Source: an uncultured Clostridia bacterium
Lineage (GTDB): Bacteria; Bacillota; Clostridia; TANB77; CAG-508
Direction of reading: 5' to 3'
NCBI GenBank assembly: GCA_934153805.1
Contig: CAKPFO010000001.1
Coordinates: 31,080-95,079, forward strand
Length of the DNA: 64,000 nt
This document shows positions 3,233 through 27,486 of the stretch, piece by piece. The notes beneath the pieces are model-generated. The model saw only the letters and a program-made list of their open reading frames with translations, was not told the origin of the DNA and did not search any database. A program made the translations under genes and the position numbers. The number at the start of each line of letters is the position of its first letter. Position 1 is the first letter of the stretch.

Positions 3233-4432
3233 TTATTCATTACTAAACATGTGCTTTCTTGTTAATTCTAATAAATTTAACTTTGTAAATTCTATTACCT
3301 GTGTTTTAGAACGGTCATTTTTTAGTTCTTCTTTTAATGTTTCTAAAACCTCTTGTCTGCTCTTGCCTTCTTTCATATCTATATAATCAATTATTATAAT
3401 TCCTCCAATGTCTCTTAATCTAAGTTGCTTTGCTATTTCTTTGCTAGCTTCCTTATTTACCTTTAAAACAGTTTCTTCTAAATTTTGTTTTCCTGTAAAT
3501 TTTCCAGAATTAACATCAATAGCAGTTAGTGCCTCTGTTTTATCTATTGTTATAAATCCTCCACATTTTAGCCAAACTTTTCTAGCCTTTGCTTTTTCAA
3601 TTTGGTCGTCAGTATCATACATATCTAGCAAATTATCTGTATTTTTTAATTCTACTTTTACGTTACTATCTCTATCTATTTGCTCTATACATTTTTTTAC
3701 TTCTTCATAGATATTTTGGTCATTAACCCATATTTTTTCTATTCCATTATCTATGGTGTCTAATAATATTTTTTCTAGTATTGAACTACTTTTGTATAAT
3801 TCTTGTGGTTTTCTACTCTTTATTGCTTTTTTACTCTTTTCTTGTATTTGATTCCATTTTTGTATTGTGTTTTTTATATCTAATGAAAGTTCTTCTTTAC
3901 TTTTACCTTGAGCTGCTGTTCTTACAATTATTCCTACATTGTCTTCTACTGCTTCTTTTACTATCTTTAATAGTCTTTCTCTTTCTTTTTCGTCTTCTAT
4001 CTTTTTTGATATAGTTATAAATTTATCTTTTGGCATAACTACTACAAATCTTCCTGGTATATGTATATCAGTGCTTATTTTGGCTCCTTTTAAACTTGTA
4101 CTATCTTTTTTTACTTGAACTAAAATAGGTTTATCCCTCTGTATATATTTTTTTATATTATATTTTTCTAAGTCTTCATTTTTGTTTCCAGTAATTTTGC
4201 TTACTTTAGGTAAGATATCTTTTATATGTATAAATGTATTTTTTTCTTTTCCTATGTCTACAAAAGCTGCTTGCATTCCTGGTAATATATCTTTTACTAT
4301 TCCTAAATATATATTTCCTTCTAGTCTTCTAGTAGTATCTTTTTCTTCATATACTTCTTCAAGTTTTCCATTGCTTAATAATGCTATTACTTTTTTATCT
4401 TCCTGCTTTTCTATTAGTATCTCTTGCATCAA
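3233..4432 (-). CDS. rng: RNase G/E family ribonuclease (S1 domain)
   Basis: GNIYLGIVKDILPGMQAAFVDIGKEKNTFIH S1 motif. The catalytic-domain arrangement is typical of Rne/Rng. Confidence 0.8.
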   Translation of the reverse strand: MMQEILIEKQEDKKVIALLSNGKLEEVYEEKDTTRRLEGNIYLGIVKDILPGMQAAFVDIGKEKNTFIHIKDILPKVSKITGNKNEDLEKYNIKKYIQRDKPILVQVKKDSTSLKGAKISTDIHIPGRFVVVMPKDKFITISKKIEDEKERERLLKIVKEAVEDNVGIIVRTAAQGKSKEELSLDIKNTIQKWNQIQEKSKKAIKSRKPQELYKSSSILEKILLDTIDNGIEKIWVNDQNIYEEVKKCIEQIDRDSNVKVELKNTDNLLDMYDTDDQIEKAKARKVWLKCGGFITIDKTEALTAIDVNSGKFTGKQNLEETVLKVNKEASKEIAKQLRLRDIGGIIIIDYIDMKEGKSRQEVLETLKEELKNDRSKTQVIEFTKLNLLELTRKHMFSNE

Positions 4433-9553: not shown

Positions 9554-9861
9554 TTTTTCCCCTTTTTATTTTCATTTTATTTTTGCATATCTGCTTTTAC
9601 ATTACTTATTATATTATAAATTTCACAATTATTCAAACATTCTACAAAATTTGATAAAATTTTTGTTGTTCTATGTTCTAATTCACAGCGTATGTCGCGG
9701 CCTTCCTTTTAAAAATACTAGTGCGTTGACCCCTCTCATCGCACTCACTTTCGTTCGTTTGGTCGCTTACGCGGTCTTTTAAAACAATATATTGTCAAAC
9801 TTTTTATTAAACTTTATAAATCCGGGGATTGTAACATTAAATGCTTTTTATTTTTAATTGC

Positions 9862-9897
9862 AAAAAGCTTAGAATTTTGTAATTCTAAGCTTTTTTT
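9862..9897. terminator. bidirectional intrinsic terminator after the PBP gene
   Basis: AAAAAGCTTAGAATT-ttgt-AATTCTAAGCTTTTTTT perfect palindrome. Confidence 0.65.
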
Positions 9898-9903
9898 GTG
9901 ATT

Positions 9904-12105
9904 TTAATAATCCACATATACCTTGCTACCTTTATTCACCTTTATTCCTACTTTAGGTGTTTGTTCTTTTATAACTGTATTTTCTTTATCCATTCCTTCT
10001 TGTTCGTTATTTATTTGTAGTTCCAGACCTAAGTCCTTTAATATTTTTATTCCCTCACTTATAGTTTTTCCTTCTACATTTGATACCTCTACCTGTTCTG
10101 TTTCTTGAACATTTTCAGCATCTTTTTTTACCTCTAAATATGGCAATACCTCTCCAAATATTTGTGAACCTATTGGTGCTGCAACACCACCTCCTTGGTG
10201 TCCACCTTCTCCTGTTGGATTATATAATGTAATTAAAACAGCTACAGTTGGATTAGAAATTGGTGCCACTCCTATAAATGATGTAACATATTTTCCAGTA
10301 TTTACGCCGTCTTCTGATGTTCCTGTTTTTCCACCTATTCTATACCCTTGTACTTGTGAATTTCTTCCAGTTCCATCTGCTACAACACTTTCCATCATAC
10401 TTAACACATTTTTAGCAGTTTCCTCTGAAATTACTCTATCTTTTTTTACCACCTCTATATTTTTTCTTTCCCCTGTTTGACTGTTTATAATTGCCTTTAC
10501 TACCCTAGGTTTTACATATGTTCCGCCATTTGCTATTGCAGAAACCATACTTACCATTTGTATTGGCGTTACCTCAAATCTTTGCCCAAATGCAATTGTC
10601 CCAAGCTCTACTGGTCCTACTTTTTCTTCTTTTAAAAATATAGAACTTGCTTCTCCTGGTAAATCTATTCCTGTTCTTTTTAGAAATCCGAATTTTTCTA
10701 AATATTGATAATATTTATGAACTCCTAATTTTTGTCCTAGTCCTATAAAAACTGGATTACATGAATTCATTAAAGCTTTTCTTAAACTCTCCGAACCATG
10801 TGGTCTATAATATCTCCAACATTTCATTCTTACTCCAGCTACTTCTATTCCTCCTGTACAGCAAAATTCTCCTTCCTTATCTACTTCTGCTATTTTTTCT
10901 TCTAACGATGCTGATGCAGTTACTAACTTAAATGTAGACCCAGGTTCATATGTGTCTGATATTGCTTTGTTTCTCCACATTGCTTGTAAATTTTTTGTTT
11001 TATCACTTTGTGATAAGTTATCCCATGTTTGCTTTAGTTCTTCAGTATTTGGCGAGTATGGTTCATTTAAATTATAATTTGGATATCCTGCTATAGCTAA
11101 AATGTTTCCATTTTGTGGATTCATTATAATAATATTTCCTCCATCAGTACATTTGTTGTCTATGCATGCTTCTGTTAAATATTTTTCTGCAATTCCTTGT
11201 ATTGTCGCATCTATTGTAAGTATTAAATCATTTCCATCTATTGCTTCCTCATAATTTTCTGCAGCATTTTCTATATCTCCACCTACAGCATCTGTTATCT
11301 TTTTTATTTTTCCTTGACTTCCTTTTAGTTCGCTATCATATACACTTTCTATTCCATCTAGCCCTTGATTGTCGCTTCCACAAAATCCAATTATTTGTGA
11401 TGCTAAATTGTTAAAAGGATAATACCTTTTAGTGTCTTCATCTATGTTTATTCCTTTATCTATATTTTCCTGTTGCATCCACTTCCTTAGCTCATCTGCT
11501 TTTTCTTTTTCTACTTTTTTTACAATGGTTTCTATAGAACTTCTTTTACTTACTTTTTTTAATGTTTTTTCATAATCTAAATTAAATATATCAGAAAGTG
11601 CTTTTGCTACTTTTTCTCTATCTTCTTTTTGAATATTTACTGGATTTACAGTGACCGTTTCTACGTTCGAACTTACTGCTAGCACTGTTTTTTCTGTGGC
11701 ATCATATATTGTTCCTCTTTTTGGATTTATGCTTCTATCTAAAGTTTGCTGTACATATGCCATAGATTGCAATTCGCTACCCTGTGCAAATTGTATATAT
11801 CCTATTCTTACAGTTAATAGTATTAGTAATGTAATTATTACAATAAGTTCATATTTTTCTCTTTTTTTTCTTGATATATCCCCTACTGGTTCTACATTTC
11901 TAAATTGCTTTTTATTTAGCTTCTTAAAATTTATTGGCTTCTTCTTTTTTATCTTTTTTATTTCCTTTTGATTATCCTCTTTTAATATGTTTTTCTTTAT
12001 TCTATCTTTTAGCTTTTGTTTTTCTGTCCTTTTTATCTTGTTATTTTCTTTTTGTTTTTTTAATTCTATTATTTTTTTCTTTTTATTACTCATTTTTACT
12101 ACCAT
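9904..12105 (-). CDS. class B penicillin-binding protein (transpeptidase, one C-terminal PASTA domain), SpoVD/FtsI-like. About 85-aa lysine-rich N-terminal extension before the TM helix
   Basis: STFK, SCN and KTGT transpeptidase motifs. Single PASTA (VEGKTISEGIKILKDLGLELQI). dcw-cluster position after ftsL. Confidence 0.8.
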   Translation of the reverse strand: MVVKMSNKKKKIIELKKQKENNKIKRTEKQKLKDRIKKNILKEDNQKEIKKIKKKKPINFKKLNKKQFRNVEPVGDISRKKREKYELIVIITLLILLTVRIGYIQFAQGSELQSMAYVQQTLDRSINPKRGTIYDATEKTVLAVSSNVETVTVNPVNIQKEDREKVAKALSDIFNLDYEKTLKKVSKRSSIETIVKKVEKEKADELRKWMQQENIDKGINIDEDTKRYYPFNNLASQIIGFCGSDNQGLDGIESVYDSELKGSQGKIKKITDAVGGDIENAAENYEEAIDGNDLILTIDATIQGIAEKYLTEACIDNKCTDGGNIIIMNPQNGNILAIAGYPNYNLNEPYSPNTEELKQTWDNLSQSDKTKNLQAMWRNKAISDTYEPGSTFKLVTASASLEEKIAEVDKEGEFCCTGGIEVAGVRMKCWRYYRPHGSESLRKALMNSCNPVFIGLGQKLGVHKYYQYLEKFGFLKRTGIDLPGEASSIFLKEEKVGPVELGTIAFGQRFEVTPIQMVSMVSAIANGGTYVKPRVVKAIINSQTGERKNIEVVKKDRVISEETAKNVLSMMESVVADGTGRNSQVQGYRIGGKTGTSEDGVNTGKYVTSFIGVAPISNPTVAVLITLYNPTGEGGHQGGGVAAPIGSQIFGEVLPYLEVKKDAENVQETEQVEVSNVEGKTISEGIKILKDLGLELQINNEQEGMDKENTVIKEQTPKVGIKVNKGSKVYVDY

Positions 12106-12228
12106 TCCTTCCTTGAAACACTATTTTCTTATCTATTTCTAGGTATAAATATCTATTGGTATTTTTATGCCTTTTATTAATATTTATATTTTAAGAATAT
12201 GTAAAAATGTTAATTAAAAGAACTTTTA

Positions 12229-12274
12229 TTTTTTTGCACGTCAAAACACCCACGCTACATTGTAGCATGGGTGT
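12229..12274 (-). terminator. GC-rich intrinsic terminator of the surface-protein cassette
   Basis: ACACCCACGCTACA / TGTAGCATGGGTGT 14-bp stem (1 mismatch), followed on the minus strand by a T-run. Confidence 0.5.
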
Positions 12275-12291
12275 AAACACATTATTCAATT

Positions 12292-14451: not shown

Positions 14452-14530
14452 ACGCTCTCTCCTTTTCAATGTGCTTGGTTAAACACTTCTACTAGAAGTA
14501 TTTAGTTTATTATTTTTAGTTGCATGAAAT

Positions 14531-14559
14531 ATGTTAACATCTTTACCATTTTTTGTCAA
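14531..14559 (-). promoter_or_regulatory. own promoter of the surface-protein gene: TTGACA-N17-TAACAT on the minus strand
   Basis: Read from reverse complement of 14531-14559. Confidence 0.4.
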
Positions 14560-14607
14560 TAGCATTTTTAAAAAAATATATAATCCTTTTCAATTGCTAA
14601 TTCCACC

Positions 14608-14659
14608 CATAAAAAACTACTATATAAATGATTGTTTCATTTCTATATAGTAGTTTTTA
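14608..14659. terminator. bidirectional terminator immediately after ftsL-like gene
   Basis: AAAAACTACTATATA-N17-TATATAGTAGTTTTT perfect inverted repeat with flanking A/T runs. The right arm overlaps the ftsL stop. Confidence 0.5.
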
Positions 14660-15178
14660 TTTTATGCTCTCTGTTAGTCCTTTTATAATTTTTTGCCAAA
14701 TATTTAAGTTTTCGTCTATAACAACTTCTTCTGCTGCTGATTCTATATAATCTTTTTTTGGTAAATTTATATATATTTTTTGGCTATTATCTAATTTTTG
14801 CATTCCTAATTTTTCTTTTGCTTGTTGCTCTACATTGTTTAAATTTAAGCTGCTCTCTATATTTACTTTTAACTGCTCGTTTTCCTTTTGAACTGCAGCC
14901 ACATCTTCTTTTAATTTTTCCTTTTGATTAAATCTTTCTGTTATTAGTGAATTTCTATAGCTTATCGTAAATAATATAGCAAATCCAGCAGCTATATATA
15001 ATGCTACTTTTATTTTTGGTTTAAGCGCATGCTTCACACTTTTTTTATTGTTTGTAGTAGCTTTCTTTTTAGTTGTAGTTTTCTTATTTTTATATGGATT
15101 TTCTATTGGTCTATATTCTGGTTCTAATTTTCTTGGGCTCGTTTCATATTGATATCCATAGTATCTTTGATATGCCAT
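14657..15178 (-). CDS. ftsL: FtsL-like cell-division protein (bitopic, coiled coil)
   Basis: dcw position after rsmH. Cytoplasmic N-terminus, one TM (VALYIAAGFAILFTISY), periplasmic coiled coil. Weak sequence signal. Confidence 0.5.
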   Translation of the reverse strand: MAYQRYYGYQYETSPRKLEPEYRPIENPYKNKKTTTKKKATTNNKKSVKHALKPKIKVALYIAAGFAILFTISYRNSLITERFNQKEKLKEDVAAVQKENEQLKVNIESSLNLNNVEQQAKEKLGMQKLDNSQKIYINLPKKDYIESAAEEVVIDENLNIWQKIIKGLTESIK

Positions 15179-15197: not shown

Positions 15198-16148
15198 TTA
15201 GCTAATTTTTTTCTCAAATATCCTCAATTTTGCACTTTTGGATCTAGAGTTTTTTTCCTGCTCTTCTTTAGTTGCTATTATTGGTTTTTTATTTATTATT
15301 TTTCCTTCAGATTTACATCCACATACACAATATGGTAAATCTTTAGGACATGTGCACTTTCCTTCTGCTTCTTGGAAAGCTTTTTTTACTGCTCTATCTT
15401 CTAATGAATGGAATGTTATAATACATAATCTTCCGCCATCTTTTAACATTTCTATCGATTGTTTTACTGTGTTATATAATGGTTTTATTTCATCATTTAC
15501 CTCTATCCTTATAGCTTGAAATGTCCTTTTGGCAGGATGTCCATCGTTTTGTTTTGACAATGGTATAGATTTTTTTATAATATCTACCAATTCAAATGTT
15601 GTTTCTATATTTTTATTTTTTCTTTGTTTTACTATGTTACTAGCTATATTTCTAGCAAATCTTTCTTCTCCGTATTCATATATTATATTAGCTAGTTCTT
15701 CTTCTGTATAATTATTAACTACATATTCCGCCGTAAGTTCTTGACTTTTGTCCATTCTCATGTCTAACCTAGCATCTCCTATATAGCTAAACCCTCTTGA
15801 CCTTTCGTCTAATTGATATGAAGATACTCCTAAGTCTAATAAAATACCGTCTACTGCGTATATTCCTATATTTTCTAGTAAATTTTTTATATCATCATGA
15901 TTTCCATGAACGTATTTTACATTAGAATAATCCTTTAATTTTTCTTCTGCTGCTTTTAGTGCTTCTTCATCTCTATCTATTCCTATCAGAATTCCCTCTT
16001 TTGTGGATAATCTTTTTATTATTTCTTTACTATGTCCTGCTCCTCCAAGAGTCCCATCTACATATATTCCATCTGGTTTTATATTTAGTCCTTCTATGCA
16101 TTCTTCTAGTAGAACTGGTTTATGTATAAATTCCATTTTAACACCCAA
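15198..16148 (-). CDS. rsmH: 16S rRNA (cytosine1402-N4)-methyltransferase
   Basis: [13 protein letters not shown] motif, full-length MraW. Confidence 0.9.
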
Positions 16149-16260
16149 CTTTTAAGTTTAACTTTTAAATAGCATAATCAGTTGGTATTTGAAATACCAA
16201 CTGTCATGCCTCTTTTTTCATTATTCTTTTGTTTCTTTTTTGGTTTTCATTAGTTAAACT

Positions 16261-16478
16261 TTTTCTTTTGTTAACTATTGTTCATTAATCATTCGTTATT
16301 TTTTTATTTATCTTTTGCATTTACTTTATCTTTTGAAATTAATTTATATCTTTGGTAGATTAAAATTAATCTTTTGTAACATTGATGGTCTAAATTAAGA
16401 CTTTATCTTTTGTATTTTTCATTTTAATCTTTTGTATCTATATTTTTATCTTTTGTACTTTTTCATCTTCTGTGTATT
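16261..16478. repeat. array of about 9 degenerate direct repeats (consensus ATCTTTTGTA) phased at about 19-20 bp in the 362-bp mraZ-rsmH spacer
   Basis: Copies start near 16264, 16310, 16328, 16348, 16368, 16404, 16428, 16447, 16466. Confidence 0.6.
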
Positions 16479-16510
16479 TATTTTCTAGGAATATTCCTGA
16501 AAAAACTTTT

Positions 16511-16936
16511 TTATATACCAAGCATTGTCATGTTCTGTGCAATTTCATCTGCCGATATATTTTCATCACATTTTGCCCAGGTATCCTTGTCCCAAATTTC
16601 TAGTCTAGTTCCTACTCCAATTATTACTGCTTCTTTTTCTAGATTTGCTGCTATTCTTAAATTGTTTGGAATTAAAAATCTTCCTTGCTTGTCTATCTCA
16701 CATTCTGTTGCTCCTGATAAGAAAAATCTTACAAAATTTCTTGCATTCTTATCAGAAAGTGGAAGTGCCTTTAACTTAGATTCAAAATTCAACCACTCAT
16801 TTTGTGAAAACGCAAATAAACATCCATCTAAACCTTTTGTTACGATGAACTTTTCTCCCATGTCCACTCTTAACTTTGCTGGCATTATTAATCTACCTTT
16901 TACATCTAGAGAATGCTCGTATTCACCAATTAGCAA
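16511..16936 (-). CDS. mraZ: transcriptional regulator MraZ
   Basis: [14 protein letters not shown] matches the MraZ N-terminus. Likely TTG start at 16936 with AGAGGTG RBS. The track's GTG at 16957 is less likely. Confidence 0.85.
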
Positions 16937-16963
16937 TTGTATTTCACCTCTTTTCACAATTTA

Positions 16964-16988
16964 CCACTTTGTACCACTTCGCTCCACT
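16964..16988 (-). promoter_or_regulatory. MraZ operator: three AAGTGG direct repeats with exact 10-bp period, just downstream of a TTGATT-N17-TAGAAT promoter
   Basis: Plus-strand CCACT at 16964, 16974, 16984. Resembles the known MraZ-box triplet architecture at Pmra. Confidence 0.55.
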
Positions 16989-17039
16989 TTTATTAAATTC
17001 TAATATAAGAATCTAAAAAAATCAAGTATTTTCGCAAAA

Positions 17040-17075
17040 AAAATAAAGAAAAGTAAAAATTTTACTTTTCTTTAT
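17040..17075 (-). terminator. terminator after sortase gene
   Basis: AGAAAAGTAAAA-tttt-TACTTTTCT hairpin plus a T-run on the minus strand. Confidence 0.45.
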
Positions 17076-17824
17076 TTTATCTCTCTTGCTTTTACTGCTA
17101 ATCTTTGTTGTCCATAGTTCTTACAAGTTATTAATGTTAGCTCTCTTTTACCACCTGTCAACTGGCTTGTACACTGCGTGTCTGTAGGTTCTACTACATA
17201 TCTATCATAAACTTCATACTGTACTGTTTGCCCTGTACTTACATTTGTAAGTTCTACTATATCACCATTTGCTATAGCTGGTAAATTCCCAAACATTTTT
17301 CCACTTTTATAATTATGTCCTACTATACAGTAATTTCCAACCTCATTTGGTTTAGGTCCCCAATATTTATTAAGTGATACTTTTAATAGTTCTTCTGACC
17401 ATTCAGAAATAACTGGATAATTAATTCCTAATCTTGGAATATTCAAAATTGCTTCTACACTGTATTCTATTCCACTATTGGTTGTATATTTAACTGTATC
17501 TTCTTGTGTTTGATTTGAATTTATAATTTGTTGATCATCATTTTCATTATCATCTATAGCTACTATTATTACTCCATCATATTCTTTTATTGTATTATCT
17601 TGTCCTACTGTAGCTTCTGCACTTTTTGATATGTTTATTCCTTCTAATATTTCTTTTGAAACTTCTTCACTTTTTGACCTATCATATTCGGCATATATGT
17701 AATAAGAAAATAATAGGCATACTAATAAAACAGATAAAAAAAATTGTATTTTATACATTTTCTTTTTTCTACGTAATTCTGGTGTTATATATAATTTTTG
17801 TGTTACTAGAATTTGATTCATCAT
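17072..17824 (-). CDS. sortase (class B-like)
   Basis: N-terminal TM. CIVGHNYKSG (His) and LTLITC (TLxTC catalytic Cys) motifs. True start possibly at MYKIQFF. Confidence 0.7.
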   Translation of the reverse strand: MMNQILVTQKLYITPELRRKKKMYKIQFFLSVLLVCLLFSYYIYAEYDRSKSEEVSKEILEGINISKSAEATVGQDNTIKEYDGVIIVAIDDNENDDQQIINSNQTQEDTVKYTTNSGIEYSVEAILNIPRLGINYPVISEWSEELLKVSLNKYWGPKPNEVGNYCIVGHNYKSGKMFGNLPAIANGDIVELTNVSTGQTVQYEVYDRYVVEPTDTQCTSQLTGGKRELTLITCKNYGQQRLAVKAREIK

Positions 17825-27225: not shown

Positions 27226-27326
27226 AATTAGAAATTTATTTTATAGTGCCAAGAACTCCGTCCTATTGTCAATAACTCTGTTTCAATTGACAAAAAGAAA
27301 GACCATCTTTTCCAAATTTTTTTCAT

Positions 27327-27486
27327 AAAAAGGACACCCCTTCAATCTTTTTAAGAAAGAAGGGGTGTCCCTTTTAATAAATTTTTTCGAAAAAGGGGCG
27401 TCCCTTTTAACTATTCAATCTTTTTAAGAAAGAAGGGGTGTCCCTTTTAATAAATTTTTTCGAAAAAGGGGCGTCCCTTTTAACTA
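27327..27486. repeat. bidirectional terminator built from GGGGYGTCCC-core hairpins, with a tandem about 72-bp duplication
   Basis: AGGACACCCCTTC-N15-GAAGGGGTGTCCCTTTT 13-bp stem. Unit ttcaatctttttaagaaagaaggggtgtcccttttaataaattttttcgaaaaaggggcgtcccttttaact occurs twice in tandem. Confidence 0.6.

Follow-up and report, generated by a model that had tools for sequence, protein, structure and literature searches.

In several well-described bacterial systems, the fate of an RNA is decided by multivalent binding of a protein to short repeated motifs: GGA in CsrB/RsmZ, A-rich CA motifs in CrcZ, (G/U)AG ×11 for TRAP, and UAG ×6 for HutP. The element described here, an array of short direct repeats in the spacer between mraZ and rsmH, lies in a 64,000-nt stretch of contig CAKPFO010000001.1 from an uncultured Clostridia bacterium (this whole stretch is called the window below). 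It shares with these systems many short, predicted single-stranded motifs, their variable number and spacing, and an adjoining hairpin of possible terminator type; it differs in that its motif is an 8–9-mer, shows neither GGA nor triplet periodicity, and is placed in an operon spacer. We assign a probability of about 0.55 to the reading that the array acts as an RNA-level cis element of the mraZ–rsmH co-transcript, read by a putative sequence-specific factor and tuning the downstream transcript.

In type III toxin–antitoxin loci (ToxIN), a repeat array is followed by a terminator and then by a gene expressed by read-through, and the same order of array, terminator-like hairpin, and downstream gene is seen here. 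However, ToxI units are 34–36 nt long, conserved over their full length, and precede an endoRNase toxin gene, whereas conservation is confined here to 8 nt and the downstream gene is rsmH; Tandem Repeats Finder (TRF) yields for the array only short imperfect periods of 17–22, and a type III antitoxin was rejected. In operon maturation by RNase Y, as at cggR–gapA and saePQRS, cleavage uncouples a regulator gene from the downstream genes. These sites are also intercistronic, have their G|A where the RNA is AU-rich and unstructured, and are closely followed by a hairpin; the array, in contrast, is an invariant 8-mer repeated up to 14 times and does not show the U preference at −2/−3.

Two other elements are comparable by position. 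The mraW RNA motif of Actinobacteria (RF01746), located in the 5′ untranslated region of mraW in Corynebacterium glutamicum (PMC3890552), is likewise a conserved non-coding RNA element between mraZ and mraW/rsmH, but it is structured, has no repeat array, and belongs to a different phylum. UpsM, from the 5′ leader of the Rhodobacter sphaeroides dcw cluster, is a small RNA associated with a Rho-independent terminator with partial read-through, and controls division genes (PMC5089854). A hairpin inside a dcw operon transcript, here of possible terminator type, is common to both loci; UpsM, however, lies 5′ of mraZ, has no repeated short motif, depends on RNase E/Hfq, and comes from an alphaproteobacterium. 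The spacer has no match to any Rfam family (cmscan) even at E ≤ 10, RF01746 included, and Rfam on the whole window gives one tRNA and nothing else. Judged from its sequence, the element would be classed as a repeat-array RNA regulatory element that has the defining features of none of the tested families, and most probably as an RNA signal not described before, with a putative protein or RNase as its reader.

The array (U)ACAAAAGA(U) occupies positions 16225–16475 of the window on the minus strand, the strand of mraZ and rsmH, as defined by sequence, motif scan, and conservation; in the transcript the motif reads UACAAAAGAU. Allowing at most one mismatch, ATCTTTTGTA is matched seven times, at 16448–16457, 16427–16436, 16405–16414, 16369–16378, 16348–16357, 16328–16337, and 16310–16319 (plus-strand coordinates; four matches are exact). 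A degenerate copy with two mismatches is seen at 16466–16475, and two extra exact ACAAAAGA cores at 16264–16271 and 16225–16232. In total, the spacer has eight exact CAAAAGA cores, or ten copies counting degenerate ones, close to the nine or so reported by an earlier annotation made from the letters alone (below, the sequence-only reading). The array is confirmed as real and locally enriched: the window contains 45 motif matches vs. 22 ± 4.6 in shuffles, the mraZ–rsmH spacer is its sole place with at least three cores within 120 nt, and, out of 14 long intergenic intervals compared within the window, only the spacer has a 7- or 8-mer repeated six to eight times (the others reach at most four). 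The spacer (16137–16510) measures 374 nt by the called rsmH start; the 362 bp of the sequence-only reading holds if the in-frame TTG at 16148 is the start. That reading also separated the array from the canonical MraZ boxes, and indeed the AAGTGG boxes are found apart from it, at 16964–16989, 5′ of mraZ. MraZ operators are direct repeats of GTGG- or TGGGN-type boxes at a strict period of 10–11 bp, sited at the mra promoter or shortly 3′ of it. The array itself was rejected as such an operator: the ACAAAAGA core lacks GTGG, the spacing is 15–36 nt, and the site follows the mraZ coding region.

Conservation was assessed in 80 loci from a protein-guided scan, one genome per species, all from uncultured gut Clostridia and including Clostridium sp. 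CAG:440 and CAG:343 (loci are cited below by L numbers). The MraZ proteins of these relatives are 87–96% identical to that of the window; the search with the window MraZ gave only matches of at least 87% identity and thus no view of distant relatives, so that distant loci were drawn from two other sources, a pattern scan of metagenomes and proteins homologous to the L363 MraZ. A long mraZ–rsmH spacer (178–527 nt) is present in 80 of 80 relatives, each with 3–12 copies of ACAAAAGAT at no more than one mismatch. At nine other Clostridia loci, the interval between the two genes is only −7 to +18 nt, as expected from the sequence-only reading; a long spacer is hence particular to this lineage. The spacers (24.8 kb) contain ACAAAAGA 469 times, or 18.9 per kb; the flanks (448 kb) have it at 0.23 per kb on the sense and 0.03 per kb on the antisense strand, and no second cluster of it was found there. 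The copies are always sense-oriented, and, within the arrays, 40% of cytosines are the first letter of a CAAAAG.

Purifying selection acts on the core and not on the whole unit. Between closely related species (17 independent pairs), counting a position as core if it lies inside an exact core of one species, differences are seen at 3.4% of core sites (25/737) and at 12.8% of other array sites (249/1952; Fisher p = 6e-15). Core C and G differ at 0.5% vs. 28% for other C and G. Thus, the 8-nt core evolves about 4 times slower than the inter-copy bases, and its C and G about 50 times slower.

The spacing of the copies is much less constrained. In the window, successive copies are 18, 20, 21, 36, 22, 21, and 18 nt apart. 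Among relatives, 15 nt is the most frequent interval (185 of about 560), with a second peak at 22 nt (38 intervals); the remainder ranges from 12 to over 60 nt without multiples of 10.5, and in other organisms the motifs are 18–26 nt apart. Since the approximately 20-nt spacing of the window is not kept in relatives, same-face phasing at two helical turns, proposed by the sequence-only reading, does not characterize the element.

The array is followed by a conserved hairpin (16172–16210, minus strand; inverted repeat and minimum free energy (MFE) fold) with a perfect 12-bp stem CAGUUGGUAUUU/AAAUACCAACUG at 16179–16203, which extends to about 18 bp via GCAUGA/UUAUGC and is followed by UAUUU. 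It is sited about 30 nt 5′ of the rsmH ribosome-binding site, and the first gene 3′ of the array–hairpin module is rsmH. Exactly complementary arms are present in 52 of 81 spacers, and further relatives have slightly imperfect outer arms; in 33 of the 52 species the last motif copy lies 24–30 nt 5′ of the hairpin. In a 45-species alignment, compensatory double changes have occurred at five of the nine base pairs (e.g., G–C to A–U, C–G to U–A), none of the seven outer pairs is broken, 18 single-side changes give G–U wobbles, which pair on the sense strand only, and the loop varies from 3 to 22 nt. The compensatory changes, the sense-only G–U pairs, and the variable loop argue for an RNA hairpin and against an operator for a dimeric or fixed-spacing protein.

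In one third to one half of species, the hairpin resembles an intrinsic terminator. At least five U among the next eight nucleotides are seen in 17 of 52 relatives vs. 5% background, and a U-tract overall in 17–26 of 52 vs. 5–14% background. Several relatives have textbook A-tract/stem/U-tract terminators with the U-run ending 3–10 nt from the rsmH ribosome-binding site; this, together with the absence of a sense promoter, suggests that rsmH is read through from upstream. A promoter scan found no sigma-70-like site on the sense strand of the spacer, so that the internal promoter considered by the sequence-only reading is not supported; the other strand has two such sites, no more than expected by chance. 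The cores are predicted to be more often unpaired than the rest (probability 0.82 vs. 0.57), core values being higher in 81 of 81 species, and the first motif copies are unpaired in the MFE fold of the window. A second conserved hairpin 5′ of the main one was sought and rejected: the 80 nt upstream mostly have an MFE of 0 to −5 kcal/mol, i.e., are essentially unstructured.

The same motif is seen in other transcribed contexts. The metagenome scan (three cores 15–25 nt apart) was sampled at 120 matches, of which eight are mraZ–rsmH loci, including distant members of the lineage with MraZ 65–81% identical. One of the eight, L363, comes from a 47% G+C organism with MraZ 39% identical and with mraZ and rsmH 17 nt apart; its mraZ 5′ leader (2740–2985) has eight TTACAAAAGA copies, preceded by the promoter and by GGTGG boxes that repeat every 10 bp. 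Such boxes also occur in L374 and L377. The further lineage of L377/L380 has 2–5 copies in the same leader position (L377 2330–2500; L380 1380–1500), and L374/L375, of which L374 is grouped with L363, have a leader array at 3700–4000. Altogether, the two lineages with leader arrays (MraZ 39–47% identical to that of the window) have 2–8 copies, with mraZ and rsmH contiguous; five other Clostridia and Erysipelotrichaceae loci have no motif array.

In 13 human-gut contigs, 4–6 motif copies start exactly at the 3′ end of the 6S RNA gene (RF00013, 62–71 bits), on the same strand, and an intrinsic terminator follows the array. Twelve of these contigs belong to Agathobacter rectalis, as judged by PheS cluster names (L263 3459–3775; also L256, L258, L261, L268, L272, L276, L278, L280, L310, L352, and L355), and one to a second species (L277 6560–6882), whose inter-motif sequence is entirely unlike that of A. 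rectalis. The order in A. rectalis is promoter, 6S, array, terminator, and, after about 40 nt, the ribosome-binding site of a SpoIID-like gene, followed by an rRNA methyltransferase gene; the interval between 6S and the SpoIID-like gene has no space for a separate promoter. Arrays both in mraZ leaders and behind 6S suggest a shared trans factor. The stems of the hairpins trailing the arrays have an AGCUG 5′ arm and a CAGCU 3′ arm in the window's lineage, A. rectalis, and L277 (window 16179–16203; L263 3745–3770; the terminator after the L277 array), which hints that the module includes the sequence of the hairpin as well as its shape.

Taken together, these sequence comparisons favor the view that the motif is read in the transcript and not in duplex DNA: the orientation is sense-only in three independent transcribed contexts, leader arrays are placed 3′ of promoters, spacing is loose, the cores are predicted to be accessible, the hairpin or terminator covaries, and there is no internal promoter. 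Under the RNA-level reading, transcription from the mra promoter would traverse mraZ and enter an A-rich, unstructured region some 250 nt long, which exposes 8–10 copies of (U)ACAAAAGA(U) and closes with the conserved hairpin. The single-stranded repeats could offer many binding sites at once to a sequence-specific factor conserved in gut Clostridia, either an RNA-binding protein or an endoribonuclease, whose occupancy, together with the hairpin, would set continuation of the transcript (termination or read-through), its processing, or its stability into rsmH–ftsL–pbp, thereby uncoupling expression of these genes from mraZ. Binding of such a factor, its identity, and the sign of its effect are what we infer; candidates may include KH-domain proteins such as KhpA/KhpB or NusA, RNase Y, and Hfq. 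Of the roles suggested by the sequence-only reading, an internal attenuator element fits the evidence best, while the phasing, the promoter, and the iteron do not.

Several observations weigh against this reading. The hairpin in the window has no good U-tract (AUUAUGCUAUUU), and a terminator scan gives no match to it; the weak tail makes termination there doubtful. Six relatives (L020, L021, L024, L026, L050, L070) have an array but no hairpin, so that the two are separable. Transcription through the array is deduced from the order of the genes and from the absence of a promoter. The sense strand is A-rich in intergenic regions of this genome generally, hence, the AT skew of inter-motif bases is uninformative as to RNA vs. 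DNA. In the selection test, the aligner may favor pairing of repeated cores. Published rules for RNase Y require a GA in unstructured, AU-rich RNA that is closely followed by structure, and AAAAG|AU followed by a hairpin is compatible with them; however, the RNase Y consensus is weak and does not account for an invariant 8-mer (doi 10.1101/2023.03.12.532304). A literature search gave no known binding motif for KhpA/KhpB. We know of no bacterial RNA-binding protein with this motif. Finally, phage iterons with the same 9-mer and a 15-bp period imply that a reader of this sequence in duplex DNA exists in nature.

The phage iterons are the main DNA-level comparator. A viral scan for three CAAAAGA cores at fixed 15-nt spacing is unspecific (at least 120 matches), and its matches are largely of 15-nt period, with giant-virus contigs included; composition, analyzed for the stricter pattern only, is still that of phage Rep_O iterons and coding repeats. 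About 30 viral and 17 metagenome contigs have three TACAAAAGA at 15 bp (or 15 + 14 bp); these copies lie inside genes of lambda-O-like replication proteins (PF04492) and encode TKDTITKDTI. The TACAAAAGAmACwAT units, presumably in-gene origin iterons in the classic position, are seen in L085, L145, L203, L211, L233, L235, L248, and about 40 other viral and metagenome loci. Perfect tandem iterons of 20–23 bp with the same core are found in L259, L283, and L279. The likeness to the array lies in the TACAAAAGA core as direct repeats at 15 bp; since the 9-mer is imposed by the search pattern, the 15-bp period is the sole independent coincidence. The phage iterons differ in being coding (TKDTI), in conservation of the whole 15-bp unit, in their 3–4 copies, and in their place beside their own Rep domain, where they form an origin at the DNA level; the remainder of the unit is CACTAT in phages vs. 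TAAAAA in the host array. Weak tblastn similarity suggesting a Rep_O-like gene 5′ of mraZ in relatives was traced to a generic XRE-type helix-turn-helix (HTH) protein, which the window lacks beside mraZ.

Three other explanations can be set against the RNA-level cis element. A trans-acting role has precedents in CsrB/RsmZ, which titrate CsrA, and in CrcZ, which titrates Hfq/Crc: the array and hairpin, released by termination or processing as a 3′UTR-derived small RNA, would titrate an RNA-binding protein, any effect on rsmH being secondary. The variable copy number (3–14) and the loose spacing are as in sponge RNAs, the cores are predicted to be unpaired, and a true terminator follows the array in many relatives, in L322, and, in A. 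rectalis, after the highly expressed 6S. However, there is no terminator after the mraZ-leader arrays (L363, L377), the hairpin is absent in several relatives, a promoter of its own was not found for such an RNA (the conserved box behind mraZ is not promoter-like), and the 64 kb of the window and 448 kb of flanks show no sign of other protein targets; we consider such a sponge unlikely. Somewhat less likely again is the main idea of the sequence-only reading, a DNA-level operator or iteron-like array, on which a DNA-binding (e.g., winged-helix) protein would form a roadblock or a nucleoid or regulatory complex. It would account for the identical core in the phage lambda-O-like genes and in the perfect tandem iterons, and for the window spacing averaging about 20 bp; it does not account for spacing away from helical multiples, for units that outside the core are unlike those of phages, for leader arrays 3′ and not 5′ of the promoter, or for an associated inverted repeat that behaves as an RNA hairpin. 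All mraZ- and 6S-linked arrays are, moreover, transcribed, with the motif on the sense strand (the L322 and L350 arrays are not covered by this statement). Replication-origin iterons are direct repeats of 17–22 bp, conserved as whole units and sited in or beside a rep or initiator gene of a mobile or replicating element. An iteron in particular is contradicted by the lack of a Rep_O-like gene in the window or the loci, by a chromosomal position fixed in 80 species, and by conservation of the 8-nt core only.

A functionless minisatellite, or relic of a coding repeat, expanded by slippage of a 15-nt unit (TKDKx codons), is extremely improbable. The 15-nt mode does equal five codons, stop-free TKDK-type frames of 64–76 codons are present in L042, L041, L026, and L020, and copy number changes quickly; but most species have interrupted frames, open over a median of 44 aa and over 32 aa in the window, and many spacings do not divide by 3. 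All 80 relatives, moreover, keep the array, and arrays of the motif are also found in unrelated settings that do not code for protein, behind 6S and in mraZ leaders. Drift between the cores and change of copy number, with the 8-mer fixed and its C and G slowest of all, rule out neutrality of this kind. The TKDK-type frame of L042 begins directly after the mraZ stop codon; the frame is not conserved across species.

Other assignments were tried and rejected. A CsrA-type sponge or leader, with its multiple A(N)GGA motifs that often sit in hairpin loops, does not fit, as the core has AGA and not GGA, and the copies lie in unstructured RNA; a coding tandem repeat or small open reading frame does not fit, as the window spacer has no sense-strand frame of at least 40 aa. 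By-eye comparison with Hfq ARN, CsrA GGA, MazF/EndoA UACAU, and NusB/E boxA, with DnaA box, WalR, PhoP, LytTR, SpoIIID, and CodY sites, and with the 16S 3′ end and C1402 region showed no match at invariant positions. A literature search for the motif k-mer gave only primers and papers on simple sequence repeats.

The remaining features of the locus, all on the minus strand, are as follows. The likely mra promoter, TTGATT–17 nt–TAGAAT (16997–17025; consensus scan, 9/12 matches), lies just 5′ of the MraZ boxes, an arrangement as in other bacteria. The operator region (16945–16989) comprises AAGTGG ×3 at a 10-nt period and the degenerate TTGTGA and AGGTGA; TRF reports a period of 10 with 2.9 copies at 16962–16990. 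mraZ (16511–16936; 141 aa, TTG start; PF02381, E = 7.5e-40) has the ribosome-binding site GAGGTG 8 nt 5′ of its start. rsmH (15198–16136; PF01795, E = 2e-123), which encodes the 16S rRNA m4C1402 methyltransferase, has the ribosome-binding site GGGUG (16142–16146; GAGGUG in relatives) 5 nt 5′ of its ATG, and an ftsL-like gene (14657–15178) lies 3′ of it. A penicillin-binding protein (PBP) gene with PBP domains is located at 9904–12105.

Just 3′ of the mraZ stop, the window has a small AU-flanked hairpin (AGGAAU/AUUCCU, 16481–16504, minus strand; inverted repeat and fold), specific to its clade: L001, L002, and L004 have different yet complementary arms. Most relatives have there a strongly conserved non-coding box, (C)TTGCAAAAGTTTATATAAA (..AAAAGTTTATATAAA), directly after the stop (L006–L080, first 20 nt); its AGTTTATA is present in 77 of 81 spacers, and the box is absent in the window (16490–16510), where the small hairpin is found instead. 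As a sigma-70 promoter the box was rejected, because the spacing does not fit. A sigma-54-like GG–N10–GC (TGGTAT–N5–TTGCA) across the mraZ stop, seen in 30 of 81 (TGG in 10) and absent in the window, is probably a coincidence.

In many relatives, an XRE-type HTH gene (132 aa) is divergent from mraZ (e.g., L031 2344–2742, minus relative to mraZ; at the same place in L009, L014, L030, L038, L049, L061, L066, and L068); the window has a sortase gene there (17072–17824). The dcw cluster of the window has further long gaps at 9554–9903 (350 nt), 12106–12291 (186 nt), and 14470–14656 (187 nt), and between the ftsL-like and PBP genes there is an open reading frame of 725 aa, acidic and repetitive, with a hydrophobic C-terminus and without a Pfam match. 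A long near-perfect AT-rich hairpin at 27309–27393, with many sub-threshold microRNA-type Rfam matches, lies inside a 1052-nt intergenic region that also has TTAAAAGGGAC ×3.

The array is thus a strongly selected element, absent from Rfam, placed exactly at the divide between mraZ and the essential downstream genes. More tentatively, it may belong to an undescribed post-transcriptional system of gut Clostridia, in which a conserved RNA-binding protein or nuclease would read arrays before envelope and division genes (in the mraZ leader, the mraZ–rsmH spacer, and the 6S–spoIID-like spacer), the 6S-linked array possibly coupling expression of division and cell-wall genes to the status of the transcription machinery and to growth phase. 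If so, this system of an RNA-binding protein and its arrays would be comparable in kind to CsrA/CsrB. As A. rectalis is culturable, the question is experimentally tractable. To our knowledge, Firmicutes have few global RNA-binding proteins with defined motifs, and the factor, if found, would give a new sequence-specific RNA–protein pair in the RNA biology of this phylum.
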